A stretch of DNA of 64,000 bases from an uncultured Alphaproteobacteria bacterium (GTDB lineage: Bacteria; Pseudomonadota; Alphaproteobacteria; CAVTAV01), in the NCBI GenBank assembly GCA_963821875.1, contig CAWGFE010000001.1, forward strand, positions 2,825-66,824, written 5' to 3'. Shown here one piece after another: positions 1,374 through 43,818 of this stretch; position 1 is the stretch's first letter, and each line of letters starts with the position of its first letter. The translations under genes and the position numbers were made by a program. The notes under the pieces were generated by a model. The model saw only the letters and a program-made list of their open reading frames with translations. It made no database searches and was not told where the DNA came from.

Positions 1374-1584
1374 GCGAGGGTTTGGTCACTGCGAAAACTA
1401 TGCCGCCAACCTTGGTATGGCACTCTCGACCAATCGCAGGAATCGGGTGTTGCGAGCCCCCGCAACCAATGTTTTCAAGGGTTTAGCTGAAAGGCTAAGC
1501 CCTTTATTTTTGCGGGTTGCCAGCCCCCCGGCCATCGCCCCTATGATGGCATCGAGAAACGGTTTTCATCAGGGGGAGTTTCAG

Positions 1585-1919: not shown

Positions 1920-2699
1920 TTATGCCGGCGTCGGGGAGGTCGGGGCCGCGTCGGCTGGGCGATTCCGCGCGGGGTCGGCACCGTAAAGCATCTCCCGTGC
2001 GCGGCCGACATAAACCTCGGCCGGCCAGACAAGCGCGTGGAAGCCGAAGAAGGCCGTGCCGATCGCCACGAGCATCTCACGAATTTCGGTCGGTGCGTCT
2101 TCGGGGACGAGGTTCGGAACGGGGTGCCAGGCGAAATAGTATTTTCCGTAGAGATAGGCGCCGACCCAGATGGAGCTGTAGCACCAGGGCAGGACCGGGA
2201 AATAGGCCCGCCCCAGCAGGGTTTTGCCCCATTTCGTGCGGGCGAACAGGGGAATGCCGAATCCGCCGAGCAGCATATAGATGCTGAGGCCGCGATAGGT
2301 GGTGATCCAGGGATTGTCCACCATGAACTGGAGGTTATGGACGTTGATTTCGTCCTGGGTGTTGTCCTGCGCCAGCATTTGGGGCGTGGCGATGTGAAAG
2401 ATCCGCTGGCCCCAGCTGATTTCCTCGCCCATGCAGAAAAAGGCGACGAAAGCCCAGGCAAAGGTCATGGTCCGGACCCAGCGCCCGACGCCGCTGCGCG
2501 ACACCGGCATGCGCCACGCCGCCGCGAAGAACAGCAGAGCGCCCACACCGTAACCGATCGCCGTCAGGTTCTCGATCCAGTGATCTTCCTTGGTCTGCGG
2601 CGCCAGATGATAGGGGTCGACCTCGATCCAAACGACGAAGATCGCCAGAATGACGACTGGAAGGATATAGAGAATACGTTTGACCGTGGGGCTAGGCAT
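1920..2699 (-). CDS. Hypothetical polytopic membrane protein
   Basis: 259-aa ORF with several hydrophobic segments (ILYILPVVILAIFVVW, GYGVGALLFFAAAW, TFAWAFVAFFCMG). I recognise no family. Confidence 0.65.
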   Translation of the reverse strand: MPSPTVKRILYILPVVILAIFVVWIEVDPYHLAPQTKEDHWIENLTAIGYGVGALLFFAAAWRMPVSRSGVGRWVRTMTFAWAFVAFFCMGEEISWGQRIFHIATPQMLAQDNTQDEINVHNLQFMVDNPWITTYRGLSIYMLLGGFGIPLFARTKWGKTLLGRAYFPVLPWCYSSIWVGAYLYGKYYFAWHPVPNLVPEDAPTEIREMLVAIGTAFFGFHALVWPAEVYVGRAREMLYGADPARNRPADAAPTSPTPA

Positions 2700-2833
2700 A
2701 AAGCCCTCCTGCGATGCGTTAACGGCGATTTTCCAGCGCCGGCACCTGACCCCAAACGGCCGAGATTTATTCCGTACGGATTAAGTATTCCCTAATCGGG
2801 AGCGGACGCGGGCCATCCCGGTCTCTGCCCGCT

Positions 2834-2884
2834 ACATCAACTGTTCCATGTCGACCATCATTTCCGCGGTCTGGGCGGCGGGGA
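2834..2884. repeat. Orphan copy of the last ~16 codons plus stop region of the APC permease gene; left direct repeat of the glycosylation islet
   Basis: acatcaActgttccatgtcgaccatcatttccgcggtctgggcggcgggga matches 7413-7463 at 50 of 51 positions. The one difference is a synonymous CTG/TTG change. Confidence 0.9.
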
Positions 2885-2922
2885 CAGGCCCCGCGTCGCA
2901 AAGTGACAAGCGTTTTGCGGGG

Positions 2923-3321
2923 TCAGGTCCTAAAGACGAATATTTTGCTCAGCAGGAAGAAGATCGTCGTATAGGTAGCCATGCCAAAAAGCTGCGCAAT
3001 ACCCGGCTGAACAGCCCCCGTGCGGAGCGTGACGACCACGGTGATAGCGTTTAGACTGTAGGCCACGGCGAATGCGAATAGAAAACGGCCGACGGGTTGG
3101 CCTGAAGCCTGGTCCGAGAAAGTCCAGTTCCTGTTCAGCACGAAAGAGCAAAGAAGGCCTACGGCGTAGCCTGAAGCGTTTGCTACGATCGGCGTTATGC
3201 CGAACCAATCCATGAGAGCGAAAATAACCGCGAGCCCGACGAGGGTATTAATCACACCAACAATGCCGAAGCGTACAGCCTGCTGGGCCAGTCGCCGAAC
3301 TGCCGGGTGCCGGTATATCAT
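2923..3321 (-). CDS. GtrA-family membrane protein (putative polyprenyl-phosphate-sugar flippase)
   Basis: MIYRHPAVRRLAQQAVRFGIVGVINTLVGLAVIFALMDWFG...NRNWTF is a typical GtrA-like four-TM pattern. I chose the ATG at 3321 over the GTG at 3408. Confidence 0.8.
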   Translation of the reverse strand: MIYRHPAVRRLAQQAVRFGIVGVINTLVGLAVIFALMDWFGITPIVANASGYAVGLLCSFVLNRNWTFSDQASGQPVGRFLFAFAVAYSLNAITVVVTLRTGAVQPGIAQLFGMATYTTIFFLLSKIFVFRT

Positions 3322-3493
3322 GCCTTGTATTTCGCAAGATGATGGACAACAGAGACCGTCACCGTTGAATCCGGAATGTGGGCCCTGAAGATCAAATCGG
3401 ACAGCCACGCTGGAGCAGTGATCGCCTGTATAAAAGGCGCCAGCAGACCTGTCGTCCTATCAACTTTCCCAAGAGTCTCGATGACTTTCGGAC

Positions 3494-5071
3494 TCAAGAT
3501 CCCTCTCGTCGCTTCAGCAAAATATCGTGATTGGCAACGTATAACACCTCATAGCGGTTGCCGACGTATTTCATGAGCGTCCGGAACGTCTTGGGAGCAG
3601 TCGGCGACGCTTTGAGAGGCGTGTCGATACCGTCGAGCCAGTTGCGTCCCAGGATGACGAAGACAGGCGGCTTTTCGCGAAGGTCCGTTTCTAATTGGGT
3701 GAGCCAATTTTCGTAATACGGAAAAGAGGGGGTGATCGAACCCAACGCCGGAGTATTCGTCAGCCTGATGCTCGACCGTCTTTCCGACAAGAACGGAATC
3801 TCGAAGGCGTTCGAATAAAGCACGATATAGTCACCCGGCTGGCTGCCCGCTCGGATCAGGTTGACCATCGAGCGTAGGTCTTTGGACGATGTATCACCCC
3901 AAAAAACTTCATCTATGCGTCCGGCCAAAAGGTTCTCTGCTGACGGAGCCAGGTGGGTCAGTTTCTTTGCGCAACCAGAAACGGTGATACCCAGAGCGGC
4001 AATCACCGCCGTGCCGATCAGTAGAGTGCGGCGTTTTCGCCAAATGTTAAGAAGAAAGTCGAGACAGACTGCGACAAGTAAAGTGAGAAGTGTTAAGAAT
4101 CCTCCGATGTGGTAACCGAATCCTTTATTCTGCGCCACGAAGGATATGATGATTGTTCCTGCGGCGCCTATTACAATGAGTGGCCCATAGGCGAGACCGT
4201 CACGTTTGACCCACAGAACCAGCCCGATTGATCCGAGGATGGTGAGCCAATGCCACCAACGGATGAACGCATTGAATGCGGTTGATGCCAGGCTCTGCGC
4301 AGGCGAGCCGGAGTAAGCAGACAAGGCGAATACGATCGATTTTTCATACCAGTCGCCGAGGTTTCCTTGGATGACCCCCACGGCTACGACGATACCGACG
4401 GTTGCCGAGAAGCCGGCAACGAGAAGAATTGCCCGAGTTCGTCGATTAGCGTGGCGAGGAAGGAGCGTCTGGACTGGCAGCATCTCAAGCAACAGCAAGC
4501 CCGCAAGGAAGCTCAGAAATGTGGGGCGGACAAGAACCGCCGCGGCGATCAGGACGCCCGCTATAGATGTTTGAATTTTCTCGTGAGCATAGCCTGGTGT
4601 CGCCAATGCACCGGCTGCAAGGATGATGCCTGTCGCTATTATGTCGCGTTGGCCAACCATCCATCCGCCGCCAGATACGTAGATCATCGGGTAGAGGGCA
4701 ATAAACATGAATGGTGCAGTACGAAAGCCGCTTCTCCAGATCAGGACGGCAATGGCGCCGTTAAGCATTTCCATTAAGAGAAAATCTGTCAGGCGGAATG
4801 TCCAGAAATGGACGCCAAAGAGCCAGATGCCCGCCTCATGCAGCATCATTGCGCCGGGCCAATTCATGTCGAATGAGCCGGAGTAATATGGCATGCCATG
4901 AAGGGCGAGCCAGCCTATGTAATCGAACTCTGATTGGTCCGGCGACGGGCGTACCATCATATACAACAAGCCGAGAATTGGAGCGGATACCAACCAGAAA
5001 GTCGTCAACCCGGTCTGAAGGAATTTCGCCCCGCGCCGGGACGCAATGAACGAGCCAGCCTTCGTTGTCAT
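3494..5071 (-). CDS. GT-C-fold integral membrane glycosyltransferase (ArnT/PMT/GT39-83-like)
   Basis: About 525 aa with more than 10 TM segments, an acidic first-loop motif (PSPDQSEFDYIGW) and a soluble C-terminal domain. The ATG at 5071 (MTTKAGSF) is preferred over the TTG at 5110. Confidence 0.75.
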   Translation of the reverse strand: MTTKAGSFIASRRGAKFLQTGLTTFWLVSAPILGLLYMMVRPSPDQSEFDYIGWLALHGMPYYSGSFDMNWPGAMMLHEAGIWLFGVHFWTFRLTDFLLMEMLNGAIAVLIWRSGFRTAPFMFIALYPMIYVSGGGWMVGQRDIIATGIILAAGALATPGYAHEKIQTSIAGVLIAAAVLVRPTFLSFLAGLLLLEMLPVQTLLPRHANRRTRAILLVAGFSATVGIVVAVGVIQGNLGDWYEKSIVFALSAYSGSPAQSLASTAFNAFIRWWHWLTILGSIGLVLWVKRDGLAYGPLIVIGAAGTIIISFVAQNKGFGYHIGGFLTLLTLLVAVCLDFLLNIWRKRRTLLIGTAVIAALGITVSGCAKKLTHLAPSAENLLAGRIDEVFWGDTSSKDLRSMVNLIRAGSQPGDYIVLYSNAFEIPFLSERRSSIRLTNTPALGSITPSFPYYENWLTQLETDLREKPPVFVILGRNWLDGIDTPLKASPTAPKTFRTLMKYVGNRYEVLYVANHDILLKRREGS

Positions 5072-5147
5072 GGTTGCGTCAGGCTCCCAGTGTGGGGCAG
5101 TTTGCCGCAATGCCCTTAGCCGCTCGATCGATCGGATCGTCGTTCCG

Positions 5148-6119
5148 TCATGCCAAACCTTTTGATCGCCGGTTTTCGCGCGTCAGAAAGACTGTCTGCA
5201 TCGATTGCATAGTTCGCCGGACGCCCAGCTCGAGGGACATCGGGCGCCAGTCGCGAGGCATTGATGAGGATCGAAAACTCATATCGCGGGCGTTGTGCGG
5301 GCGAGGGTCGAATTCGAGGAATAGTTTCTGCCGCAAGGTCTTTTCGACATATTGGATGAGTTCGAAAGTCGTCGTCGGACGTCCACTGGCAAGAAGCAAG
5401 ACTTGTGATATCTTTACGGGCTTCAGGACCTGCTGCGCCACGAAGCGACCGATGTCGTCCGCATGTACGTAGTCCCTGATCGTATGCATGGTGCCGAAAA
5501 TCCGGCTAACCTTGTGTCGTAAACCATTGCCGATCAACGTTGTTATGAGGCCTGCCCGCCCTGTCGGTCTGAAACCATAGACGGAGGCCGGGCGATAGAT
5601 CCGATAGACTGTCTCCTCAAGCGTCCCGCGCAGAGCGTCTTCTTGCTGAAGCTTACCCTCACCATAGGGACGCAGGGGAGCAGGAGAACTCTGGTCATCG
5701 CAATGGACGCGACCTTCGAACAAGCCACCAGCTGAACTCATCATATGGAAGCTGTGTTGCGCGGCCGGGAACCGGAGGAACAGTCGGTGGCTGATGTCGA
5801 GAATTTCTAGAAACAGTTTCGTCTCGACAGCCATTTGGTCTTGGCTACTGGAGAAACCGCTGCGCCCGGCTGCCCAGATAACATCAATAAATCGATTCGC
5901 ATCGCGGTTCGGGCCAAGCATATAGCCCGCTTCGATCTCGATTGTCTCACGCTGTACCGCACGTTCGGACGATGACGACCAATTGTAGGGAAGCCAGATC
6001 CTGCGTGCGTTCGTAAGCGATAGGAGTACTTCGCTTACTGCTCCTCCAATTAGGCCCGCGCCGAAAATCAGGGCGACGTGACCCGTTTTACCTGAGTTTT
6101 CATGCCAGCCCAGCAGCAT
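5148..6119 (-). CDS. NAD-dependent epimerase/dehydratase-family protein
   Basis: From the ATG at 6119: MLLGWHENSGKTGHVALIFGAGLIGGAV (Rossmann motif) and a YxxxK motif (PYGEGK). The start overlaps the upstream stop by 1 nt (TGATG). The 431-aa ORF-track extension overlaps the GT2 gene. Confidence 0.8.
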   Translation of the reverse strand: MLLGWHENSGKTGHVALIFGAGLIGGAVSEVLLSLTNARRIWLPYNWSSSSERAVQRETIEIEAGYMLGPNRDANRFIDVIWAAGRSGFSSSQDQMAVETKLFLEILDISHRLFLRFPAAQHSFHMMSSAGGLFEGRVHCDDQSSPAPLRPYGEGKLQQEDALRGTLEETVYRIYRPASVYGFRPTGRAGLITTLIGNGLRHKVSRIFGTMHTIRDYVHADDIGRFVAQQVLKPVKISQVLLLASGRPTTTFELIQYVEKTLRQKLFLEFDPRPHNARDMSFRSSSMPRDWRPMSLELGVRRTMQSMQTVFLTRENRRSKGLA

Positions 6120-7150
6120 CACTGTAGCTTCTCCGATAGCCAGCGCGCGGCATTCGCGTCGAGTGCGCGATCGACGGGAAAGAATGTTGGCTTGCCGTGC
6201 GCCTGGAGAACGAGTGTAGAAAGATATTGGAGGCAGATGCCCAGCATGAAGATGGACAAGCCACCAAAGAACGAAATGATCAGAACGAGGGAAGCCCATC
6301 CTTGGACGGCGATCTTCGACGGATAAAGAAGCTTCACCGCAATGAGATATGCGGATCCGAGTACGGACAAGAGCAGGACGGCGCCGCCGACCACAGCGCC
6401 GAGCCGGAGAATTTTGATGTGACTCGAAAATAGCATTCGCCATGCATGTGATAGCAATGACCTCAGTGTGTAACCACTCCGGCCAGTTCGGGTGTAGCGT
6501 TCGTCTTTAAGGTCCATCCGCACATTATCGATGCGTTGCGTGAACCATGCGAGATTGACATCGAAGTAGGTGTCGTGCGTGCAGACGCTTGATGCCGCGC
6601 GAGCGATGGTACCGCGCATGAGACGAAAGCTGTTGATATATTCGAGCTTGGGGTTGCCGGTCAGCCAGCGCATGAAGCGTTTAAAAGTCCGCGAAGTGAG
6701 ATCGCGGGTGAACGCCTTGTGAACGCCCCTCGTTGGCTGCGCATACACAACGTCGCTGCTGTTAGACAAAGCCTTGATAAGTAGGTCCGGGATCCGGGCT
6801 GGCGGGTGCTGCAGGTCTTCGTCCATGGTAACGACCCAATCACCGGAACTATGTAGGACGCCAGCGACCGTAGCCCCGTGCTGGCCAAAATTCCGCGACA
6901 GATGGAGTGCCGTCAACCAGGGCATATTGGCCGCCATCCCATCGATCACCGACGGCGATTCGTCGATCGCCGCGTCGTCGACGAGTATAAGCTCGTCCAG
7001 AGATACGGGGGCATTCTCACGCCGCCACATCTCGCGCAGTTTGGCCACGTCGTCACACAAGCGCGTAAGGTACTCCGCCCCGGAGTAGACAGGCACCACT
7101 ACGCTCACGGAGATCATCGCTGATTGGTCAGGCTCTGACGCAGCGTCCAT
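6119..7150 (-). CDS. GT2 polyprenyl-phosphate glycosyltransferase (GtrB/ArnC/DPM1-like)
   Basis: ISVSVVVPVYSGAEYL...LILVDDAAIDESP...SRNFGQHGA...TMDEDLQHPP plus two C-terminal TM helices. The start is uncertain (ATG 7150, ATG 7117 or TTG 7183). Confidence 0.85.
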   Translation of the reverse strand: MDAASEPDQSAMISVSVVVPVYSGAEYLTRLCDDVAKLREMWRRENAPVSLDELILVDDAAIDESPSVIDGMAANMPWLTALHLSRNFGQHGATVAGVLHSSGDWVVTMDEDLQHPPARIPDLLIKALSNSSDVVYAQPTRGVHKAFTRDLTSRTFKRFMRWLTGNPKLEYINSFRLMRGTIARAASSVCTHDTYFDVNLAWFTQRIDNVRMDLKDERYTRTGRSGYTLRSLLSHAWRMLFSSHIKILRLGAVVGGAVLLLSVLGSAYLIAVKLLYPSKIAVQGWASLVLIISFFGGLSIFMLGICLQYLSTLVLQAHGKPTFFPVDRALDANAARWLSEKLQ

Positions 7151-7410
7151 TTTATGCTCGGTTCCCGCCAACTCAGCCGTCAACCCGCGTCATTGCCGAC
7201 TGGCCCTAAGGTGTAATCCCGTGGATCAACAAAATGACCGCAAGACGCAACAACATTTTCGAAAGTCACTATGCCAATCTGTTCATCAGGAATGCCTATA
7301 ATACATCTTATGACTGATTGAAGTTCATTAGAAATCATGACTCTGACTTCCTCTTACTCCCATTGTCTGTGCCTTCGACAAGGTGAGCCCTGTTTCACCC
7401 TTGAGAAGGT

Positions 7411-9000
7411 TCACATCAGCTGTTCCATGTCGACCATCATTTCCGCGGTCTGGGCGGCGGGGATGGCGGAGCGGAGGGCGAGGAAGATGACGACGAGGCT
7501 CCAGAAGGCTACCGCGACGACGCCGGACCAGAAACCGAGCTCGCCATAGCCGCCGCCGATATCGCCGAGGGCGGAGAGAACCCACATGCCGCCGAACCAG
7601 GCGAACAGCCAGTCGATATTGCGCCAGCCGAAATCCTCGACAGGGTTTTTGGCGACGAAATGATAATAGACCGCGTAAAGCACGAAGCCGCCCGCGACCA
7701 GCGCGAACAGGAACGTATTCGTCGTATAGCCGGTCCAGTAGATGATCCAGTTGCTGCTGACAAAGGCGAGCGGGGCGAGGAACTCCGCGCCCTTCAGGCG
7801 GAACGGCCGGTCCAGGTCCGGCCGGTTGCGGCGCAGGACCAGCAACACGATCGGCCCCAGGCCATAGGTGAGCACCGTGATGGAAGTGATGTAGTTCACC
7901 ATCAGCTGCCAGGCCGGGAACGGCAGCAGGAACAGGACGCCCACGCCCCACATGACGAGCACCGCGAGCCAGGGCGCGCGCGCCTTGTTCAGCGAGGTGA
8001 GCCAGCGCGGGCCGGAATTCGTGTCGCCGACCGCGAAGAGGATGCGAGCCCCGCCGGTCATATACATGAGCCCGGTGCCGCCCGGCGAGATATAGGCGTC
8101 GACATAGAGCAGCGTCGCCAACCAGCCGATGCCGAGAGTCGCGGCCAGTCCGGCGAACGGGCCCGCCGCGCCGGTGAAGGTCATATGCGTCCAACCGTGC
8201 GCGAGGTCTTCGGGGCGCAGCGCCATCAGGAACGCGACCTGCAGCAGGACATAGACGAGCGCGGAAATCAGCACAGATCCGATCACGGCGATTGGAATGT
8301 GCCGTCCGGGATTGGAGCTTTCGCCGCCGAGATCGATCGCCGTGCGAAAGCCGAGAAAGCTGAACACGATGCCGGCGGCGGGCAGCGCCGTGAAGATGCC
8401 GGAGAATTTGTAGCTGTTGGGGTCCGCGTCCCAGACGTCCCAATGGGAACTCGCCGTGATCAGGACGACGATCGCCAGCAACGGCACGGCGATCTTCCAC
8501 CAGGTGACCGTCGAATTGACATGAAGCAGCTTGCGCACGGCGAGCAGATTCAAGAGCGCCAGCACGCCGAGCAGCAAGGCGCAGGTGATGAAACCCGTGG
8601 TCGTCAAAAGGTCGTTGGTGTTGGGCTGGAGGAAATAGGGCAGGTAGTTGTTGGCGTAGGTGACTATAGCCTCGGCCTCCACGGCGGGCACCGCGACATA
8701 GGCGAGAAACAGCATCCAGCCCCAGATGCGCCCCAGGCCCTGGCCATGGCTCGCATGGCTCATATGCACCAATGCGCCGCTATGCGGGAAAAGGGCGGCC
8801 AGCTCGGCGAAGCACAGGGCGATGACCATGATGATGGCGGCGCCGATGATCCAGCTCCAGACGCTCAAGGGTCCGGCGATCCGGGAAGCGTGATAGGCGC
8901 CGAACAGCCAGCCCGAGCCGATCATGCTCGTGGTGCTGGCGAATAACAGACCAATGATGCGAGCGTCACGGCTCAGCTTGCTCGGCGCGGAACCTGCCAT
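7411..9000 (-). CDS. APC-superfamily amino acid permease
   Basis: 529 aa with 12 or more TM segments: LLFASTTSMIGSGWLFGAYHA...CFAELAALFPHSGALVHM. An RBS (aggag) lies upstream of the ATG at 9000. Confidence 0.9.
   Translation of the reverse strand: MAGSAPSKLSRDARIIGLLFASTTSMIGSGWLFGAYHASRIAGPLSVWSWIIGAAIIMVIALCFAELAALFPHSGALVHMSHASHGQGLGRIWGWMLFLAYVAVPAVEAEAIVTYANNYLPYFLQPNTNDLLTTTGFITCALLLGVLALLNLLAVRKLLHVNSTVTWWKIAVPLLAIVVLITASSHWDVWDADPNSYKFSGIFTALPAAGIVFSFLGFRTAIDLGGESSNPGRHIPIAVIGSVLISALVYVLLQVAFLMALRPEDLAHGWTHMTFTGAAGPFAGLAATLGIGWLATLLYVDAYISPGGTGLMYMTGGARILFAVGDTNSGPRWLTSLNKARAPWLAVLVMWGVGVLFLLPFPAWQLMVNYITSITVLTYGLGPIVLLVLRRNRPDLDRPFRLKGAEFLAPLAFVSSNWIIYWTGYTTNTFLFALVAGGFVLYAVYYHFVAKNPVEDFGWRNIDWLFAWFGGMWVLSALGDIGGGYGELGFWSGVVAVAFWSLVVIFLALRSAIPAAQTAEMMVDMEQLM
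7413..7463. repeat. Right direct repeat, which is the authentic 3' end of the APC permease gene
   Basis: Matches 2834-2884 at 50 of 51 positions and encodes ...AAQTAEMMVDMEQLM*. Confidence 0.9.
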
Positions 9001-13559: not shown

Positions 13560-14174
13560 TTACAAAATCCCCGGCAGATAGACGACGGAAAAAATCCCGA
13601 TCCAGACGATGTCCAGAAAGTGCCAGAACATCCCGAGACGGTTGAGCTGGGATCTGACCCGCGGACTCAGGCCCCGCACGGAGACTTCGAGACCGAGCAG
13701 AATGATCCAGACGAGGCCGATGCTGACATGCAGCCCGTGGGTGCCGACCAGCGTGAAGAAAGCCGACAGGAAGCCGCTGCGGTCCGGCCCCGCCGCCATG
13801 GCGACCATGCCATGGAACTCCGATATCTCCATGCCGACGAAGCCGGCGCCGAGCGCGAAAGTGACGCCGAGCCAGAGCACCGTTTGTGTCCGCCTGCCGG
13901 CATCGGTCGCCACGCTCGAGAAACCGAACGTCATGCTGCTGGTGAGCAGAAGCATGGTTTCGATCAGCGTATGCGGCAGGTCGAACAGATCATGGCCCGA
14001 AGGTCCGCCGGCGGTGTTGGGGCGCATCACGGCATAGGTAGCGAAAAGCAGTGCGAAGATGATCGCGTCGCTCATCAGATAGATCCAGAAGCCGAAGGCC
14101 TTTTCGTCCAGCGCGCGTCTGGCGTGTTCGGCCTCCTGTTCGGCGGCTTCGGGAGTGAGGGCTCGATCGGTCAT
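13560..14174 (-). CDS. cyoC: Cytochrome o ubiquinol oxidase subunit III
   Basis: From the ATG at 14174: [13 protein letters not shown]...[21 protein letters not shown]...[10 protein letters not shown]. It overlaps the cyoB stop by ATGA. Confidence 0.9.
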
Positions 14175-16156
14175 GCCGGCGCTCCCGGGCGGCCGACAAA
14201 GGGATGCGGCCGGTTCTTCTCGATCCGCTCGATCTCCTGAGCCGGGATACGGTGTTCGGAATCGTCGCCGAAGGTCCGCGCGAGGATCGGTCCGGCGATG
14301 CCGAGAAGGCCCAGAATGGCGAGCCACCAGATGTGCCAGACCATGGCGAAGCCGAAGACGAACGAGGCTGCGGCCAGCACCACCCCGGCGCCGGTGCTCT
14401 TGGGCAGGAAAATGTCTTCGAAATGGTCGGGCCGATGCCCGAGGGCGCCGTCCGTCTTCATGGCCCAGAGCGCGTCCTTTTCGCGCACCACGGGGATGAC
14501 CGGGAAATTATATTCCGCGGGCGGGGAACTCGTGGCCCATTCGAGGGTGCGGCCGTTCCAGGGATCGCCAGTCGCGTCGCGCAATTGATCGCGATTGCGG
14601 ATACTGACCCAAAGCTGGATCGCGAGGAAGGCGATGCCGAAGGCGATCACGATCGCGCCGAGTTCCGCGACGATGAGATAGGGTTGCCAGGCCGGATTGG
14701 TGTAATGCTCCAGCCGGCGCGGCATGCCCATCATGCCGAGCACATAGAGCGGCATGAAGGCGAGATAGAATCCGATCAGCCACGCCCAAAAGGCGCGCTT
14801 GCCCCATTTCGGCTCCAGCCGGAAGCCGGACATCTTCGGGAACCAGTATTGATAGCCGGCGAGATAGCCGAACAACGCGCCGGGGATCAGCATGTTGTGG
14901 AAATGGGCGACGAGGAACGTCGTGTTGTGCATCAGGTAATCCACGGGCGGCACCGCCAGCAGCACGCCGGTCATGCCGCCGATCACGAAGGTGATGATGA
15001 AGCCGAGCGTGAAGTGCATCGGCACGCTGAAACGGATGCGGCCGCGATACAGGGTGAATATCCAGTTGAAGATCTTCACGCCGGTCGGCACGGCGATGAC
15101 CATGGTGGTGATGCCGAAGAACGCGTTTACATTCGCGCTCGCGCCCATGGTGAAGAAGTGGTGTAGCCAGACGCTGAAGGAGAGGATCGTGATCACCGCG
15201 ACGGCATAGACCATCGAGCGGTAGCCGAAGAGGGGCTTGCCGGAAAAGGTCGCGACGACTTCGGAGTAAACGCCGAAAGCCGGCAGGATCAGGATATAGA
15301 CCTCCGGATGGCCCCAGATCCAGAACAGGTTGGCGTAGTTCATCAGATTGCCGCCGCCGCCATTGATGAAGAAATGCATGCCGAGATAGCGGTCGAGGCC
15401 CAGGAGCGCGGCGGCGACGGTCAGTCCCGGAAAGGCGAAGACCATCAGGATGCTGGTGCAGAGCGCCGTCCAGGTCATCAGCGGCATCACCATCAGCCGC
15501 ATGCCGGGCGCGCGCCGCTTGATGATGGTCACGAGGAAATTGATGCCGGTGAGCGTCGAGCCCACACCGCTTATCAGGATGGTCCATATCCAGTAGTCGA
15601 CTCCGACGCCGGGGCTGAAATGCAACTCGGAATAGGGCGGATAGGCGCTCCAGCCGGCGGTCGAGAATTTGCCGATCACCAGGGACACCATCACGAGGCT
15701 GGCGCCCGAGGCGGTCAGCCACAAGCTGACGGAGTTCATGAAGGGGAAGGCCACGTCGCGCGCGCCGATCTGCAGCGGTACGACGACGTTGAACAACCCG
15801 ACCAGAAACGGCATCGCCACGAAGAAAATCATGATCGTGCCATGGGAGCTGAAGATCTGGTCGAAATGGCCGGGTGGCAGATAGCCCTGTGAATCGAGCG
15901 CGACCGCCTGCTGCGTGCGCATCATGATCGCGTCGATGAAGCCGCGCACCAGCATGACGAGCGCCAGCGCGATATACATGATTCCGATCTTCTTGTGGTC
16001 GACGCTGGTCAGCCATTCGGTCCAGAGATAGCGCCATTTGCCGAGCCAGGTGATACCCGCGACGGCGGCGGCGGCGCCCAGCACCGTGATGATCGCGCCG
16101 GTGAGCGCGATCGGGCTGTAGAACGGGATGGCGTCGATGGTGAGCTTGCCGAACAT
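14171..16156 (-). CDS. cyoB: Cytochrome o ubiquinol oxidase subunit I (heme-copper oxidase)
   Basis: From the ATG at 16156: [12 protein letters not shown]...HKKIGIMYI...[17 protein letters not shown]...HHFFTMG...VAHFHN. Confidence 0.95.
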
Positions 16157-16157
16157 C

Positions 16158-17030
16158 TCAGCGCTTCCCCCGGCTGGCCGTCTGCTCGCCTTTGTATTTG
16201 GCGATGATGCGGGAGAAGAGCTTCGGCTCGACGCCGCTATAGAAGGTAATCCGCTCGTCCTTGCTGGGCTTGGCGAGCGCGGCATAGGTGCGGGCGTCCA
16301 GCGTCCTGGGGGAGCGCTTCACCACCGTCACCCAGTCCTTGAAGTCGGCCGCCGTCATGACGTGAACCTGGAAGGTCTGATCGGCGAAGCCTCGGCCGCT
16401 ATATTGCGCGTTCCGGCCGGTGAGGGTATCGGGGTGATCGGCCGTTAGATGCAGTTCGGTCCGCATGCCCGCCATGGCGTAGATCTGGCTGGCGAGGCCC
16501 GGGATATAGAAGGCGTTCATCACCGTGTCGGAGGTCAGTCTAAGACTGACGGGGCGGCCCGCCGGCAAGACAAGGTCGTTCACCACCGCGATATTCTGGT
16601 CGGGATAAATGAACAGCCATTTCCAATCCTCCGCGACGACGTCGATCTTGAGCGGTGCGGTCGCCGCACCCGTGGGGCGATAGGGATCGAGCTGATGGGA
16701 ATAGGTCCAGACGAGATAGGCCAGTGCGGCAATGATCAGAGTGGGGACCAGCCAGACCACCGCGTCCAGCTTGGCGGAATAGGCCCAATCCGGGCGGTAG
16801 TCCGCCTGTTTGTTCGAGGCGCGATACCGTCGCGCGAACCAGAGAGTCAGGACGAAAACCGGAATCACGACGATCAGCATCAGGCCGATGGCGGTGAACA
16901 TCAGGTCGCGCTCGGCCAGCGCCGTCGGGCCGTTCGGGTTGAGAACGGGCGCATCGATCAGCCCGCAACCACCGAGAACGACCGACGGGACAATCGCCAG
17001 CAAATTGCGAACCGTTCGGGTGACCGTCAT
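16158..17030 (-). CDS. cyoA: Cytochrome o ubiquinol oxidase subunit II (lipoprotein)
   Basis: Lipobox VVLGGCG, two TM segments and a cupredoxin-like domain ([23 protein letters not shown]). Confidence 0.9.
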
Positions 17031-17243
17031 TACGATCAGCTAACGTTGCGGACGGCCATTCGTTCCGGGTCGACGCGCTCTTGAATGCGATAAGTCCGGA
17101 CGGTTGGATGTCACAAGCGAGTTTCTGGGGAACAACAGACGCGTTCTTCAGTTACTATATTGCCGCGCCGAAATTCACTCGGCGGGAGCGGGTGGCTGTC
17201 ACCACCGGCGAATAACAAGAACGCATGAAGGAGAGATTGGCAC

Positions 17244-17642
17244 ATGGCGGGATCTAGCGCGGGACTTCATGAGGATCCGGAAAAACTGAAACCGGAAACG
17301 ATCGACCGGCACCGTGCCATCGTTTCGTTGATGGAAGAGTTCGAAGCGGTCGACTGGTACGCCCAGAGGGTCGACGCCACGACGGATCCGGACTTGCGCG
17401 AGATCCTCGCGCATAACCGCGACGAGGAGAAGGAACACGCAGCGATGGTCCTCGAATGGCTGCGGCGGAGCGATCCCTCGATCGACGATTACCTGAAGAC
17501 CTATCTGTTCAGCGAAGGCGCGATTACGGAACTGGAAGAGGCCGAAACGTCCGGCGGGTCCGATGGCGAATCCGGCGGCGCGCCCCGGAAGGCCGACGGG
17601 TCGCTCGGCATCGGCAGCCTTAAGGGAAGGAGCGAGGCATGA
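17244..17642 (+). CDS. Encapsulated ferritin-like cargo protein (EncFtn) with a C-terminal encapsulin targeting peptide
   Basis: EEFEAVDWYAQR...HNRDEEKEHAAMVLEWL is the EncFtn di-iron ExxH region. A Gly/Ser/Glu linker follows, then the targeting motif DGSLGIGSLKG. An RBS (aaggagag) is present, and the gene overlaps the shell gene by ATGA. Confidence 0.85.
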   Translation: MAGSSAGLHEDPEKLKPETIDRHRAIVSLMEEFEAVDWYAQRVDATTDPDLREILAHNRDEEKEHAAMVLEWLRRSDPSIDDYLKTYLFSEGAITELEEAETSGGSDGESGGAPRKADGSLGIGSLKGRSEA

Positions 17643-18469
17643 ACGATCTTTGGCGTGATTTGGCCCCGGTACCGGCTCAGGCCTGGACGGAAATCGACGA
17701 AGAAGCCACGCGGACGCTTAAGGTCTCGCTGGCGGGGCGCAAAATCGCGGATTTCACCGGCCCCTTGGGCTGGGAAGCATCGTCCGTCGGTCTCGGCCGC
17801 GCCGAGGAGCTGAAGCAGGGCCCGGGCCAGGGGGTGCGCGCGTCTCTGCGGCAGGTCCAGCCCCTGGTCGAGTTGCGCGTGCCGTTCACGCTGTCCCGGC
17901 GCGAGCTGGATGCCGTGGCGCGCGGGGCGAAGGACGCCGATCTCGCGCCGGTCACGACGGCCGCCCAGGCCATCGCCACAGCCGAGGACAACGCGATCTT
18001 TCATGGCTATGCGGCGGCCGGCATTGAAGGTATTTGCGAGGCCGCCGGCGGCAGCGCCCTGTCGATTTCGGCGAATTATGAGAACTATCCCGCTTCGGTC
18101 GCCGAAGCGCTCTCGAAGCTTCGGGCGGCCGGTGTGGACGGCCCTTATGCGATCGCGCTCGGCCCGCGATGCTTTGTCGGATTGACCGAGACCACCAAGG
18201 AAGGCTTTCCGATCATGCAGCATGTCCAGCGCCTACTGGACGGCCCGGTGATCTGGGCGCCGGCGGTGGACGGCGCGGCCGTCGTGAGTCTGCGCGGCGG
18301 CGACTTCGAGCTCATCGTCGGTCGGGATTTCTCGATCGGTTATCTGGATCACTCCGCGACGGAGATCGAGCTCTATATCGAGGAAAGCTTCACCTCCCGC
18401 GTGCTCGCCCCCGAAGCCGCCGTGCCGTTGGTCTATGGTCAGAAGAAGAAAGGCACCCGCGGCAAGTGA
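17639..18469 (+). CDS. Family-1 encapsulin shell protein (HK97 fold, linocin-M18-like)
   Basis: MNDLWRDLAPVPAQAWTEIDEEATRTLKVSLAGRKIADF...VELRVPFTLSRRELDAV...GGDFELIVGRDFSIGY. 276 aa. Confidence 0.9.
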   Translation: MNDLWRDLAPVPAQAWTEIDEEATRTLKVSLAGRKIADFTGPLGWEASSVGLGRAEELKQGPGQGVRASLRQVQPLVELRVPFTLSRRELDAVARGAKDADLAPVTTAAQAIATAEDNAIFHGYAAAGIEGICEAAGGSALSISANYENYPASVAEALSKLRAAGVDGPYAIALGPRCFVGLTETTKEGFPIMQHVQRLLDGPVIWAPAVDGAAVVSLRGGDFELIVGRDFSIGYLDHSATEIELYIEESFTSRVLAPEAAVPLVYGQKKKGTRGK

Positions 18470-34670: not shown

Positions 34671-35066
34671 CTATCGATTGATCGTTACGGCGAGGCTGTG
34701 TCCCAGCCAGGCGCCGAAGATGCACAGAAGCACCGAGAGCACGACATTCGCCGCGCCCCAGAGCCATTCGCCGTCCTGCATCAGCGTCAGTGTCTGGAGG
34801 CTGAAGGACGAAAAGGTCGTGAAGCCGCCGAACACGCCGACCAGCATGAACTGGCGTGGGCCGGTGCCGAGCAGCATGCGGCCGTCGGGGCCGGTGACGG
34901 TGAAGACCACCGCGATGAGAAACGATCCGACGACGTTCACGAACATCGTGCCGAAGGGAAAGGTCTCGCCGACCCAGCGCGCCACAAGGCCCGAGCACCA
35001 ATATCGCCCAAGGCTGCCGATGGCGCCGCCGAGCGCCACCCAGAGCGGGATCACGATGCTAGACAT
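34671..35066 (-). CDS. crcB: Fluoride channel CrcB/FluC
   Basis: From the ATG at 35066: MSSIVIPLWVALGGAIGSLGRYW...FPFGTMFVNVVGSF...GFTTFSSF. Confidence 0.9.
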   Translation of the reverse strand: MSSIVIPLWVALGGAIGSLGRYWCSGLVARWVGETFPFGTMFVNVVGSFLIAVVFTVTGPDGRMLLGTGPRQFMLVGVFGGFTTFSSFSLQTLTLMQDGEWLWGAANVVLSVLLCIFGAWLGHSLAVTINR

Positions 35067-35167
35067 GACCGCGGGTTCCCGCGCGACAGCCGCGCGCACA
35101 GAGGTTTCGTCTCGAAAATGTCGGTGTCACATGCGCCTCCTGGGCCGCTTCCTCAAGCTTGTGGTTG

Positions 35168-35238
35168 TGAGGCAGGAGTCATCAGCCTGGACAAGACCTT
35201 GTCCGCGGAGGCGGTTAATGGGGGACTCCATCCCCAGT
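35168..35238 (-). promoter_or_regulatory. Fluoride riboswitch (crcB RNA motif)
   Basis: The minus strand reads GGGGAUGGAGUCCCCCAUUAACCGCC-(GGACAAG-GUC-CUUGUCC hairpin)-AGGCUGAUGACUCCUGCC. This shows the P1 stem, the conserved AAC.GCC and CUGAUG elements, and a GGAGU/ACUCC pseudoknot. It lies about 100 nt upstream of crcB. Confidence 0.8.
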
Positions 35239-35298
35239 CATTTAGAACTGCCCCGATTTTGGAGGCCAGTCAATCCTCGCGGTAGCGCACGCGCGAGG

Positions 35299-41856: not shown

Positions 41857-42609
41857 TCAGCCACGCTGACCGATCGGCCAATATCCGGACAGGATCCGTT
41901 CGCCGCGCTGTCCGCGCTCGATCTCGCCGATCACGCGCTTGCCGATGCCCGAGAGATTGCCCCGGTGCATGCGGTAGTAGAACAGCGGCTCGGCGATGTG
42001 CAGGCCGTTCCAGCCATTGTCGACGATACGCTGCCACTTGTGGTGCTTGGTGCCCTTGCGGATCGTCTCGTCGAAGACGCCGGCCTCGACCATCGCGCGG
42101 GTCAGCACGACGGCGGGTTCCGGAATGAAGCTGTATTGCGCGAGCAGGCGTGGATCGAACGCCACCGAGCGGCCCCGGTCGAGCCAGTTTCCGTCCTCGC
42201 TGATGAGATTGCAGTCGGTATAAACGAAGCCGATGCTCGGATCTTCCGAATGAGCCCGCGACAATTCGCCGATGCAGCGCCGGGCGTAACCGGAAGAGAG
42301 ATAATCGTCGGCATCCAGAATGATGCAGTATTCGCCGTGAATGTGATGCATGGCGCGGTTGATCGCGGCCAGCTTGCCCTGATTTTTCTGAGCCGGCAGC
42401 ACTTCCACGCGGGCCAGATCCTTGGTCGTCGGCAGGCATCCCTGTACAACCTCGAGGGAGTTGTCGGTGCTGCCGTCATCGACGATCACGAGTTCGATGG
42501 ATTCATAATCCTGTCGAACAACGCTCTCGATCGCCTTGGCGATATAGGTCCCGTAATTGTAATTCGGGATCATGATGGACAGCAGGCCGGTCTCGTTCTG
42601 GCTTGTCAT
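41857..42609 (-). CDS. Family-2 glycosyltransferase
   Basis: LSIMIPNYNYGTYIAKAIESVVRQDY...ELVIVDDGSTDNS...ILDADD. An RBS (ggagag) is present. Confidence 0.88.
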   Translation of the reverse strand: MTSQNETGLLSIMIPNYNYGTYIAKAIESVVRQDYESIELVIVDDGSTDNSLEVVQGCLPTTKDLARVEVLPAQKNQGKLAAINRAMHHIHGEYCIILDADDYLSSGYARRCIGELSRAHSEDPSIGFVYTDCNLISEDGNWLDRGRSVAFDPRLLAQYSFIPEPAVVLTRAMVEAGVFDETIRKGTKHHKWQRIVDNGWNGLHIAEPLFYYRMHRGNLSGIGKRVIGEIERGQRGERILSGYWPIGQRG

Positions 42610-42645
42610 TCTTTCTTTCTCTCCAAGGCGTTACCTGAAAAACGC

Positions 42646-43818
42646 TCAGGCCCGCCCGTAGGCGCTCACGAACAAATTTCCGGACGACTCATCAAGCTCC
42701 CGGAGCAATTTTTCGCACAATTTATTAATCATGCGCGTATCGTCCTCGGAAATCGAGGCAATTTTACGGTCGACATCCGGCTGGAATTCGGTGGCGTCCT
42801 CGTCATCCTTCGAATGGAACCGGAACTGTTCGAGCATGATCGACATCTCGTCCTCGGGAATTTTGGCCGCGAGGCCGCGTCCGAGGATCGCCGGGAAGGT
42901 CGACGGCGTGATATCGGTATAATTCACCAGATGGATGCCGTGATGGACCGCGCTCAGCGCCGTCTTGAAATAGTTGGCATAGCACCGGGCGAGATATTCG
43001 ATATCGGTCATGGTGGCGGTATTCGCCGCCCGGTCGCCGACCAGGAAGGCGGCCTGACGTCCACCCTTGGACACGAGCGCCGCCGTCGTCTCCTTCATCA
43101 CCGAGGCGATGACCTCAACTGGATCGCGGTAGAGGAAGACGCTCGGCACGTTCGGGAACGCCTTGCTGATGAAATCGAGATACAGGACGTTCCAGCTGAT
43201 GAATTTGACGAAGCTCGTGGTCTGATCGTCGCGGCGCTTGCGGCACATGGCGAGAACGAGGCGGCGGAATCGCGCCAGATTCTCCGGTGTCGCTTCCAGA
43301 TCGTGACGCCAGTCGTCCGTCAGCTGCGACCAGAACCCGCGCTGTAGCGGGCCTCCCTGGTTGATGACGATATTATGCTCGGAGCGCGCCACGGCTTTGG
43401 CGACCAGCGTCGAGCCGCAGCGTGAGACGTGAAAGATGAAGCCGGTGGGATAAATGCCATCCGATCCGATGGCGTCGTCGTCGAGAATGTCGAAATCGCT
43501 GGTGAAGGTCATGCCGATCGCATCGGCTTCGGCCAGATGCTTGATCGTGTAGATGAATTGCCATTCGCGCAGCGGATAATCGCCGAGATCGGCCCACAGG
43601 ATCCGGCCCTTGCCGTATGGATCGATCGCAACCGGCACGACGCCCGGATTGTCCTGGATCGCCCGAAGCGCCTCGGCACGGTCGAGATGCCTGTCTTCGA
43701 TGCCCGGCAGTAGGGCTCCGACCACCTCATGATCGGGTAAAGCAAACAATGCTGTCACGGACCTACGCGCTCCTTGGATTTTCTGCGCCAAATCGCCGCA
43801 AAGCGGCATGGCGTCCAT
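42646..43818 (-). CDS. Sulfotransferase-like protein (PAPS-binding-loop-like motif)
   Basis: GFIFHVSRCGSTLVAK resembles the sulfotransferase 5'-PSB loop (PRSGST-like). 390 aa. The functional call is moderate only. Confidence 0.6.
   Translation of the reverse strand: MDAMPLCGDLAQKIQGARRSVTALFALPDHEVVGALLPGIEDRHLDRAEALRAIQDNPGVVPVAIDPYGKGRILWADLGDYPLREWQFIYTIKHLAEADAIGMTFTSDFDILDDDAIGSDGIYPTGFIFHVSRCGSTLVAKAVARSEHNIVINQGGPLQRGFWSQLTDDWRHDLEATPENLARFRRLVLAMCRKRRDDQTTSFVKFISWNVLYLDFISKAFPNVPSVFLYRDPVEVIASVMKETTAALVSKGGRQAAFLVGDRAANTATMTDIEYLARCYANYFKTALSAVHHGIHLVNYTDITPSTFPAILGRGLAAKIPEDEMSIMLEQFRFHSKDDEDATEFQPDVDRKIASISEDDTRMINKLCEKLLRELDESSGNLFVSAYGRA

Follow-up and report, generated by a model that had tools for sequence, protein, structure and literature searches.

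A 4.5-kb islet of putative glycosylation genes between two copies of a permease gene end in an uncultured alphaproteobacterium

Architecture of the locus

In a 64-kb stretch of DNA from an uncultured alphaproteobacterium (64,000 nucleotides of contig CAWGFE010000001.1, assembly GCA_963821875.1; hereafter the window, whose own numbering we follow), we analysed a compact islet of four genes framed by two copies of the 3' end of an amino-acid permease gene. A repeat search recovered a single family of 51-nt direct repeats in the window, at 2834-2884 and 7413-7463, with 50 of 51 positions identical (98%) and a spacing of 4579. The sole mismatch between the copies (plus-strand A2840 versus G7419) is synonymous, in a leucine codon (CTG/TTG). 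When up to three mismatches were allowed, the 31-nt core of the repeat occurred exactly twice in the 64-kb window and not once in 100 dinucleotide-preserving shuffles. Between the two copies, four co-oriented minus-strand genes encode, in this order, a family 2 glycosyltransferase (GT2), an epimerase, a membrane protein with a predicted GT-C glycosyltransferase fold and a GtrA-family protein. In the gene calls the epimerase start overlaps the GT2 stop by 1 nt, an alternative TTG start of the GT2 gene lies at 7183, and the intergenic gaps of the islet measure 227, 76, 172 and 38 nt. The features of the locus are the following:

1920-2699, minus strand: 259-aa membrane protein of the chromosomal flank, without Pfam family; it starts 132 nt past the permease stop in empty-site strains
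2834-2884, minus strand: attR-like orphan repeat copy, the displaced ancestral permease 3' end, followed by AG (giving TAG) and then by the empty-site flank
2885-3000, minus strand: islet arm beside attR (38 nt of intergenic DNA and the 3' end of the GtrA gene), with 1 mismatch in 116 nt between divergent islet alleles
2923-3321, minus strand: GtrA-family protein with four transmembrane (TM) segments, 132 aa, putative polyprenyl-phosphate-sugar flippase (PF04138 GtrA_DPMS_TM, E=8e-25, 117/117 profile positions)
3494-5071, minus strand: 525-aa membrane protein with a predicted GT-C fold (no Pfam match; AlphaFold2 and Foldseek)
5148-6119, minus strand: GalE-like epimerase of the extended short-chain dehydrogenase/reductase (SDR) type, 323 aa (PF01370 Epimerase, E=2e-10)
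6119-7150, minus strand: predicted GT2 polyprenyl-phosphate glycosyltransferase of the ArnC/GtrB/PgfS class, 343 aa (PF00535 Glycos_transf_2, E=1e-21)
7184-7410, minus strand: A/T-rich islet arm from the permease stop to the GT2 gene, holding a 52-aa open reading frame (ORF) at 7180-7338
7411-9000, minus strand: APC-family amino-acid permease, the target gene, 529 aa (AA_permease_2, E=9e-40), with host-type codon usage and a G+C content at third codon positions (GC3) of 0.86
7413-7463, minus strand: attL-like repeat copy, the present permease 3' end (last 16 2/3 codons and the T of the stop codon)

A previous reading of the window made from its letters (the sequence-only reading) had noted the 51-bp repeat with its synonymous leucine change and its different stop codons (TAG and TGA), as well as the four co-oriented genes between the copies and the 1-nt coupling of the GT2 and epimerase genes; the repeat search, the gene calls and the Pfam annotation agree with it on all these points.

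Junction anatomy

The C-termini of permease relatives (…PAxETAEMMVRME…) show that the repeat encodes a genuine C-terminus of this family. The attL-like copy, which carries C at both variable positions of the repeat (12 and 45; window 7452 and 7419), is followed by GA, which completes a TGA stop codon, and then by islet DNA. We compared it with the corresponding sites of near-identical strains, the sequences compared being metagenome assemblies throughout. In the coding orientation, all empty sites and all attR-like copies read …CAG (C/T)TG ATG TAG CGG(G)CAGAG…, and the empty sites end in ATG TAG CGGGCAGAG, exactly matching the orphan copy. The genic copy, present only in islet-bearing strains, reads …CAG CTG ATG TGA ACCTTCTC…, and the DNA past this TGA is islet. 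Since the stop codon and downstream sequence of the empty sites match the orphan copy and not the genic one, it is the orphan copy that represents the ancestral gene end, now displaced. The sequence-only reading had these roles reversed, with 7413-7463 as the true permease end and 2834-2884 as a derived copy. Its view that the element restores the end of its target gene does agree with the junctions: the identity ends within the stop codon and the TGA tract is islet-derived, so that the islet supplies the present stop codon of the permease. The repeat edges are sharp, and homology beyond them does not decay gradually. This junction anatomy is that of an att site restoring its target gene.

Empty and occupied sites in near-identical strains

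Three metagenome contigs, 99.3% identical to the window in the permease and carrying a single repeat copy each, lack the islet. One of them (L088; ENA ERZ27257072, k141_209726) is 99.3% identical to window positions 12785-7413 and then runs from the repeat straight into the flank of the orphan copy, ending ~59-61 nt past the permease stop, short of the membrane-protein gene. The two others (L089, JGI Ga0102962_1018323; L095, ENA ERZ27257104) continue for 392 nt beyond the repeat, through the flank and into the gene of the 259-aa membrane protein, at 98.7% identity. The empty site envisaged by the sequence-only reading, with the membrane-protein gene directly beside the permease 3' end, is therefore found in L089 and L095, and L088 has the same junction. 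The tract of L088 past the stop codon (contig positions 5374-5434) shows 5 mismatches and 2 indels against all eight other strains, despite 99.3% identity over the 5.3 kb upstream.

The occupied junction (GtrA gene end, repeat, flank) was recovered in six independent assemblies: the window itself, a 505-kb contig from another assembly that holds the whole islet and differs from the window by 4 mismatches in 18 kb (L081), and four further contigs (L087, JGI 3300007533; L096, NCBI GCA_035267625.1, 'Alphaproteobacteria bacterium'; L097, ENA ERZ27257072; L098, JGI 3300026184). Both states occur in a single sample, ERZ27257072, from which the empty L088 and the occupied L097 derive. The islet is thus an insertion/deletion polymorphism segregating in one species-level population. 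More distant relatives do not inform on the empty site: in 80 genome loci with permease relatives (65-85% amino-acid identity) no flanking gene was common with the window and none carried the islet, but they are uninformative in this respect because the permease sits in varied contexts.

As the window is a metagenome contig and the composition of the islet is unlike that of its flanks (see below), one might suspect a chimera in which foreign DNA was threaded into the contig through a shared 51-mer. We attribute a negligible probability to this artefact. Two long contigs from different assemblies hold the whole islet, attR is crossed by a further four contigs from as many other assemblies, and the empty site by three. 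The MEGAHIT short-read contigs were assembled with k=141; because this exceeds the 51-nt repeat, their junctions are spanned by real k-mers and do not represent repeat-induced misjoins. In addition, the two copies differ by one base and so cannot be a collapsed k-mer node.

The repeat could also be regarded as a target-site duplication left by a transposase-like, staggered-cut or illegitimate insertion, with the coding sequence of the orphan copy preserved by coincidence. The copies were probably identical at insertion, their single difference being polymorphic in empty sites too, and the chance of a stop after the genic copy is 3/16. Against this stand the absence of any transposase and of terminal inverted repeats linking the two islet ends, and the occurrence of a divergent islet allele at exactly the same junction (see below). 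Moreover, known transposition systems produce target-site duplications of about 2-15 bp, a range that 51 bp far exceeds. On the same grounds (no transposase, no terminal inverted repeats, a 51-nt duplication) the islet is not a transposon or a segment bounded by insertion sequences (IS). We consider this origin very improbable and, together with the assembly artefact, effectively excluded.

Composition of the islet

The islet (2885-7412; 4,528 bp) has a G+C content of 54.9%, whereas the window as a whole has 61.9% and the flanks to the left and right have 62.0% and 63.6%, respectively. It coincides with the G+C minimum of the window: among all windows of equal length (mean 62.0%, standard deviation 1.8), the lowest value, 54.7%, starts at 2901. 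Codon usage follows the same trend, with GC3 of 0.60-0.68 in the islet genes versus 0.80-0.86 in the genes for the permease, the 259-aa membrane protein, SulP and RecQ; a filter of GC3>=0.72 retained 44 other ORFs of the window and excluded all four islet genes. The A/T-richness read by eye from the letters thus holds when computed (54.9% against 62.0±1.8%, with lower GC3 as well). Membrane function does not explain this composition, since the neighbouring genes for membrane proteins (permease, SulP and the 259-aa protein) have GC3 of 0.80-0.86. As empty strains exist and G+C and GC3 differ from those of the host, it is not the case that all relatives carry a host-like islet, which is what the sequence-only reading had held would contradict it.

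These data also bear on the idea that the islet is an old resident and that only deletions are recent, the empty sites being secondary losses via the repeats and the low G+C a functional trait of membrane and glycan genes. Such a deletion would leave a product no different from a naive attB, occupied junctions number 6 against 3 empty ones, and two of the empty sites have C at position 45, as in attL, followed by TAG, as in attR, which a crossover in the last 6 nt would give. Nevertheless, the GC3 contrast with neighbouring membrane-protein genes (0.60-0.68 versus 0.80-0.86) speaks against a functional cause of the low G+C, the closest homologue of the GT-C protein anywhere is only 48% identical and belongs to a family centred on Rhodobacterales, and neither the islet nor synteny with it appears in any species-level relative. 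The repeat itself would still require an insertion, so that this view concerns timing and is compatible with the explanation that we prefer. We find it quite improbable.

A promoter or leader proper to the islet presumably lies in the A/T-rich arm at 7184-7410. When the islet was scanned for promoters and terminators, nothing rose above the shuffled expectation, and no sigma-70-like match exceeded chance in this arm. The 52-aa ORF that it contains (7180-7338, minus strand) is preceded by a Shine-Dalgarno-like sequence, GAGGAAG, and its TGA stop overlaps the possible TTG start of the GT2 gene; no counterpart was found upstream of GT2 in six other loci carrying related genes (see below).

Allelic variation and recombination

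Two positions of the repeat vary: 12 (C/G, window 2873/7452) and 45 (C/T, window 2840/7419). At these positions attL carries C,C; attR carries C,T in the window, L081 and L098 and G,T in L087, L096 and L097; and attB carries G,T in L088 and G,C in L089 and L095. All four allele combinations therefore occur among 11 copies which, by the four-gamete criterion, implies recombination between copies or recurrent mutation. Because position 45 varies in empty sites too, the CTG/TTG difference alone is not diagnostic of islet origin. In a 341-nt portion of the flank, the empty L089 and L095 are identical to the occupied L096, L097 and L098, so that gain or loss of the islet has been recent relative to point mutation.

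One strain carries a divergent islet. Compared with the window, L097 differs at 31 of 497 islet positions (6.2%), at 4 of 780 in the adjacent membrane-protein gene and at 0 of 134 in the intergenic flank. Of the 31 islet differences, a single one falls in the 116 nt beside the repeat, whereas the following 381 nt hold 30 (post hoc binomial P about 0.003). The GtrA ORF is intact in L097, with 9 synonymous and 11 non-synonymous codon changes. The conserved att-proximal stretch is either a constrained arm, or a conversion tract, or the product of a chimeric L097 contig in which two strains were joined in a shared stretch of at least 141 nt. Under all three readings the diversity of the islet exceeds that of the chromosome, and the history of the islet alleles is separate from that of the chromosome.

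Such patterns are relevant to a rival mechanism in which RecA alone acted: circular or linear DNA bearing the four genes and ~51 nt of permease tail would have entered by single-crossover (Campbell-type) recombination, RecA-mediated deletion between the repeats would give the empty sites, and transformation, transduction or conjugation followed by recombination in the homologous flanks would spread the islet. The minimal efficient processing segment for RecA recombination is about 25-30 bp in Escherichia coli, and the 44-51 nt of identity available here are long enough. That no recombinase gene was found in or near the islet agrees with this mechanism, as do the four repeat allele combinations and the flank haplotype common to empty and occupied strains, which homologous exchange predicts; the divergence of L097 starts inside the islet and not at the repeat, resembling a homologous-recombination breakpoint between islet alleles. 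However, RecA alone leaves unexplained how foreign DNA came to possess the exact last 51 nt of the recipient permease gene, ending in the stop codon and followed by a stop of its own, and a gene-restoring copy of the target end is the hallmark of an evolved att site. Recombination over 51 bp would also be inefficient, and the repeat edges are sharp without decaying homology beyond. On balance, we judge an exclusively RecA-mediated origin rather unlikely.

Search for mobility genes

Gene calls and Pfam searches detected no integrase, excisionase or transposase gene in the islet or within 10 kb of it. Likewise, Pfam found no recombinase family among 30 host-type ORFs at 18-60 kb, a scan that left out the ORFs at 59.7-63.4 kb and those shorter than 120 aa. 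A six-frame screen of the window for the catalytic motif of tyrosine recombinases recovered the integrase of a Yoonia control and found none in a real reading frame of the window; its single match there was discarded as an arginine-rich wrong-frame artefact opposite a Na/Ca-exchanger gene. We also examined the integrase gene of the locus with the closest permease relative (L001) and rejected it as related to the islet: it lies 4.3 kb off, behind genes of host composition, and has its own G+C dip. The statement of the sequence-only reading that no integrase, excisionase or transposase lies inside or next to the islet stands as far as these scans go, and needs a caveat, as the edge of a second insertion occupies positions 1-1455.

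This second, strain-specific insertion lies at a tRNA gene. The sequence GCCCCCGCAACCA at 1456-1468 (plus strand) corresponds to the final 13 nt of a tRNA-Met (CAT) gene, of which L096 (1512-1588) and L097 (1914-1990) have intact copies. In the window, which contains no tRNA gene at all, the body of this gene is replaced at 1-1455 by unrelated DNA of host composition that includes a LysR gene (469-1373), and the 505-kb contig L081 ends inside the same insertion, at window position 971. The segment resembles the far end of another strain-specific island that was inserted at the 3' end of a tRNA gene and extends beyond the window. With its edge 1.4 kb from the islet, it may encode a recombinase beyond the window.

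Other kinds of element were considered. Lacking an integrase of its own, the islet does not qualify as an autonomous genomic island, integrative and mobilizable element (IME), integrative and conjugative element (ICE) or prophage. Nor is it an integron gene cassette, as IntI is absent and the repeat and both junctions fold no better than shuffled sequences into an attC-like structure (z = +0.84, -0.44 and +1.47). IMEX elements are integrated by the XerCD recombinase of the host and flanked by dif-like 28-bp sites at the chromosome terminus; by eye, and with no dif model run, the islet repeat shows no palindrome of XerC/XerD arms, and it lies inside the permease gene. Finally, tblastn against 50,697 phage records and a GT-C profile search of IMG/VR returned no relative of the GT-C protein, and the repeat core is absent from IMG/VR. 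The islet is thus not a phage-borne gtrABC cluster by these searches.

A model for the acquisition of the islet

We propose that 2885-7412 is a horizontally acquired, non-autonomous integrative islet carrying a self-contained module for periplasmic glycosylation, a reading to which we assign a probability of roughly 0.6. The islet would have existed as a circle with an att sequence copying the last ~51 nt of the permease gene. Reciprocal, Campbell-type recombination with the permease 3' end would then yield the observed order of permease body, repeat, islet, repeat and old downstream flank, and the permease would stay intact because the islet brings its own stop codon. As the islet encodes no recombinase, we suggest catalysis in trans by a site-specific recombinase of another element, most likely a tyrosine recombinase, a step whose chances we put at nearly even. 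Later, the islet could be lost by recombination between the repeats and spread within the species via homologous recombination in the flanks.

Several observations weigh against this proposal. The evidence stands entirely at the level of metagenome assemblies and not of reads, and L097, a MEGAHIT contig, may have been assembled from two strains that were joined within the conserved arm. No recombinase was found in cis or in trans. No contig with the circular junction attP was found either; one metagenome scan with the repeat core returned one attB and one attR contig. None of 78 permease loci from other species has a duplicated permease tail, so that nothing points to repeated use of this gene end by a known integrase family. 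The islet contains no remnants of integration or transfer genes and no pseudogenes, nor is there room for them, and nothing in it thus speaks for descent from a decayed ICE or IME. The match of the epimerase is weak (E~1e-10). Finally, the 51-nt identity exceeds the minimum for RecA, which could mediate integration, loss and allele shuffling alike; the mechanism may be either a trans-acting site-specific recombinase or RecA.

A bolder variant would make the permease tail a dedicated cassette-exchange site, at which a trans recombinase, possibly host-encoded or from the tRNA-Met island, repeatedly inserts, excises and swaps divergent recombinase-free islets that share a conserved arm. It is improbable in our view. 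If true, it would provide rapid on/off and allelic variation of surface glycans through a single-site, integron-like system that handles whole operons and dispenses with attC.

The predicted glycosylation module

Independently of how it moved, the islet encodes a coherent set of predicted enzymes. The GT2 protein has a DxD motif (DED at residue 110) and two C-terminal hydrophobic segments. It can be aligned from end to end, both C-terminal TM helices included, with the solved structures of ArnC (9hwj) and of the GtrB protein sll0501 (5ekp) at E~1e-24. The ArnC and PgfS models of NCBIfam likewise match it over the full length (E=3e-32 and E=7e-29), at scores far below their equivalog cut-offs (111.8 versus 529 bits for ArnC, 101 versus 500 for PgfS). 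By sequence similarity, it is a polyprenyl-phosphate glycosyltransferase of the ArnC/GtrB class and an orthologue of neither ArnC nor PgfS. The epimerase keeps the GxGxxG (residue 20) and YxxxK (residue 152) motifs, and its nearest solved structures are UDP-glucose 4-epimerases (best 4zrm, E=1.4e-10).

The 525-aa membrane protein had no sequence-level match in Pfam or, searched with a profile of its family, in the Protein Data Bank (PDB). By contrast, an AlphaFold2 model built on 50 homologues reached a pLDDT of 91.9 and a pTM of 0.91, and its top 32 Foldseek matches in the PDB were all GT-C enzymes, each with a probability of 1.00; they include STT3, PglB, ArnT, DPY19, AftA/AftB, AglB, Pmt, ALG3, PimE and EmbB. 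The best mutual TM-score was obtained with ArnT (5f15; 0.59/0.58), at a sequence identity of ~12-14%. Asp45 and the R142-D143 pair are invariant in the family, and a soluble alpha/beta domain occupies the C-terminus (about residues 395-525). Judging from the model and from what is known of GT-C families, the acidic Asp45 would lie in the first periplasmic loop, as expected of a GT-C enzyme. The model thus indicates a membrane glycosyltransferase with the GT-C fold, as the sequence-only reading had called it, belonging to an uncharacterised family. This family comprises about 360 clusters at 50% identity with E<=1e-30, and its members are annotated in RefSeq as 'hypothetical protein'. The 525-aa protein does not match Pfam PMT_2 (PF13231), to which 7 of the 50 family members match weakly (best E=6e-10).

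From sequence and model together, the islet genes are predicted to form a three-component periplasmic glycosylation module of the Gtr type (GtrB-type GT2, GtrA flippase and GT-C enzyme) with an added epimerase. Homology, fold and gene order suggest that the GalE-like enzyme makes the needed nucleotide sugar or epimerises the lipid-linked sugar. The GT2 enzyme would move the sugar onto undecaprenyl phosphate at the cytoplasmic face of the membrane, GtrA would flip the lipid-linked sugar, and the GT-C enzyme would transfer it to a periplasmic acceptor, which may be lipopolysaccharide, another envelope glycan or a protein. For the identity of the sugar and of the acceptor, analogy with known systems is the guide.

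The cassette in other genomes

The order GT2, epimerase, GT-C protein, GtrA is kept in at least eight other Rhodobacterales-type genomes or megaplasmids, amid unrelated neighbours and usually with 4-nt gene overlaps. The carriers are Yoonia algicola, Paracoccus lutimaris, Primorskyibacter flagellatus, three contigs from metagenome-assembled genomes (MAGs) or metagenomes (L084, L091 and L094) and the megaplasmids p1 of Paracoccus methylovorus and pAMI5 of Paracoccus aminophilus. In six of these other loci, we looked for direct repeats and composition dips: repeats occurred only in Yoonia, and elsewhere the cassette has about the G+C content of its host. The cassette is therefore a portable unit of which the window holds a recently imported copy.

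In Y. algicola (L083, CP151762), a 6.6-kb segment comprising the cassette and a TPR gene lies between direct repeats of 81-82 nt (7588-7668 and 14289-14370; 89% identity) which copy the first 52 nt of a tRNA-Gln gene together with some 30 nt preceding it. An integrase gene (17263-18468) is found 3 kb from this segment. The repeat geometry does not fit a simple integration at a tRNA 3' end. Of the two copies, the orphan one has the better acceptor-stem match (TGGGATG) to the 3' strand of the tRNA-Gln. A second pair of repeats, of about 300 nt (13653-13941 versus 16789-17120), brackets an AAA_21 ATPase gene next to the integrase, and a (CT)n microsatellite lies at about 14440-14480.

Other carriers show peculiarities of their own. 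In P. flagellatus (L092, FWYD01000020, 400-12000), the cassette sits amid IS66, IS110, IS21, rve and DDE transposase gene fragments, beside the gene of a 2149-aa polyketide synthase; a related Logan contig (L093) has a truncated GT2 gene. In L084 (MAG contig JBCCRC010000035), a different and shorter AA_permease gene (419 aa; 2725-3984) is convergent after the cassette.

Other features of the window

A fluoride riboswitch (35166-35244, minus strand; Rfam RF01734, 55.7 bits) lies directly upstream of a crcB fluoride channel gene (34671-35099, minus strand), an ordinary arrangement. An encapsulin operon at 17244-18469 (plus strand) consists of an EncFtn-like cargo gene (17244-17642) overlapping a shell gene of the Linocin_M18 family (17639-18469). 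At 41857-43818 (minus strand), another GT2 gene, unrelated to that of the islet (41857-42609), lies beside a 390-aa ORF without Pfam match (42646-43818), in a mild G+C dip (~57% at 42.0-43.5 kb); this may be another small envelope-glycan locus.

Comparison with known systems

Cis-mobilizable elements (CIMEs) were first described beside ICESt1 and ICESt3 in Streptococcus thermophilus. In the sense of the definition given in PMC5704250, the architecture of the islet, flanked by att-like sites and recombinase-less, is CIME-like judging by its sequence. Like a CIME, the islet lies between direct repeats that take in the 3' end of its target gene, is precisely present or absent at these repeats, and contains only cargo, without integrase, excisionase, relaxase or transfer genes. 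It differs in showing no decayed recombination or transfer genes and no partner ICE or IME in tandem in the window, in its target, an APC permease gene of an uncultured alphaproteobacterium, and in being very compact (4.5 kb, four genes).

As for the cargo, three-component glycosylation systems such as the gtrABC clusters of Shigella and Salmonella temperate phages have been reviewed in PMC8035078 and PMC11127046. There, the undecaprenyl-phosphate-linked sugar made by a GtrB-type GT2 is flipped by a GtrA-family protein and then serves a polytopic GT-C enzyme as the donor for transfer in the periplasm; by analogy, the same activities are predicted for the islet, which is likewise accessory, horizontally moved DNA beside an att site. 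However, the islet has no phage or integrase, possesses an extra SDR epimerase and follows the order GT2-epimerase-GT-C-GtrA, and its GT-C protein is ArnT/PMT_2-like by fold and not a serotype-specific protein of the GtrC type. The analogy with phage gtrABC drawn by the sequence-only reading is thus apt for the three-component logic but not for the vehicle, considering that neither the 50,697 phage records nor IMG/VR contained a relative of the GT-C protein. Apart from this vehicle, the roles of the two gene ends and the integrase caveat, that reading is largely supported, each of its testable parts having held.

The protein O-glycosylation operon pgf of Streptococcus mutans, composed of the GT-A enzyme PgfS, the epimerase PgfE and the GT-C enzymes PgfM1 and PgfM2 (PMC12041528), is the only well-studied GtrB-type system that we found with a built-in epimerase, and the islet GT2 matches the PgfS model over its full length (E=7e-29). 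Nevertheless, this match reaches only 101 bits of the 500 required, the Pgf GT-C enzymes are of the YfhO type, and Pgf is a Gram-positive system whose operon lacks a GtrA gene and which has not been described as a mobile islet. In the Arn pathway, which modifies lipid A with L-Ara4N, ArnC is the best NCBIfam and PDB match of the islet GT2, and ArnT has the best mutual TM-score with the GT-C model. The islet, however, lacks arnA, arnB, arnD, arnE and arnF genes and has GtrA in place of ArnE/F. We rejected it as an Arn orthologue given the ArnC score (111.8 versus 529 bits), the absence of a sequence-level PDB match for the GT-C protein and the lack of other arn genes in the islet.

Further resemblances exist with the pentofuranose systems of Citrobacter youngae O1/O2 (GT136; PMC11127046) and with mycobacterial arabinosylation from decaprenyl-phosphoryl-arabinose (DPA; DprE1/E2, AftA and the GtrA-like Rv3789), which combine a lipid-linked donor, a flippase, a GT-C enzyme and an auxiliary SDR epimerase that sets the sugar; the mycobacterial AftA and AftB are also among the structural matches of the islet GT-C protein. 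These systems, by contrast, start from phosphoribosyl pyrophosphate (PRPP) with a phosphoribosyltransferase of the UbiA type, and that of Citrobacter uses a MATE flippase. In the islet, the donor synthase is a GT2 of the GtrB/ArnC type, which implies a nucleotide-sugar donor. Kelly et al. (PMC11127046) knew of no other epimerases in O-antigen side-chain systems.

The islet thus belongs neither to Arn, nor to the phage gtr clusters, nor to Pfam PMT_2. What is new here is the combination of a CIME-like islet with a three-component glycosylation module that includes an uncharacterised GT-C family; the underlying kinds are known. It defines a conserved, portable four-gene cassette (GtrB/ArnC-type GT2, GalE-like epimerase, GT-C family without Pfam entry and GtrA) and suggests that a complete pathway for the modification of surface glycans can segregate as a 4.5-kb on/off polymorphism without any mobility gene. 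It is an unusually clean case from environmental populations, in which we recovered the site in its occupied and its empty state and could describe both junctions in detail. Such islets are invisible to island-finding methods keyed on integrases, and they likely matter for phage receptor variation and for resistance to grazing or antimicrobial peptides in uncultured soil and water Alphaproteobacteria. Thanks to the cultured carriers in Paracoccus and Yoonia, the sugar and the acceptor of this module are open to experiment.

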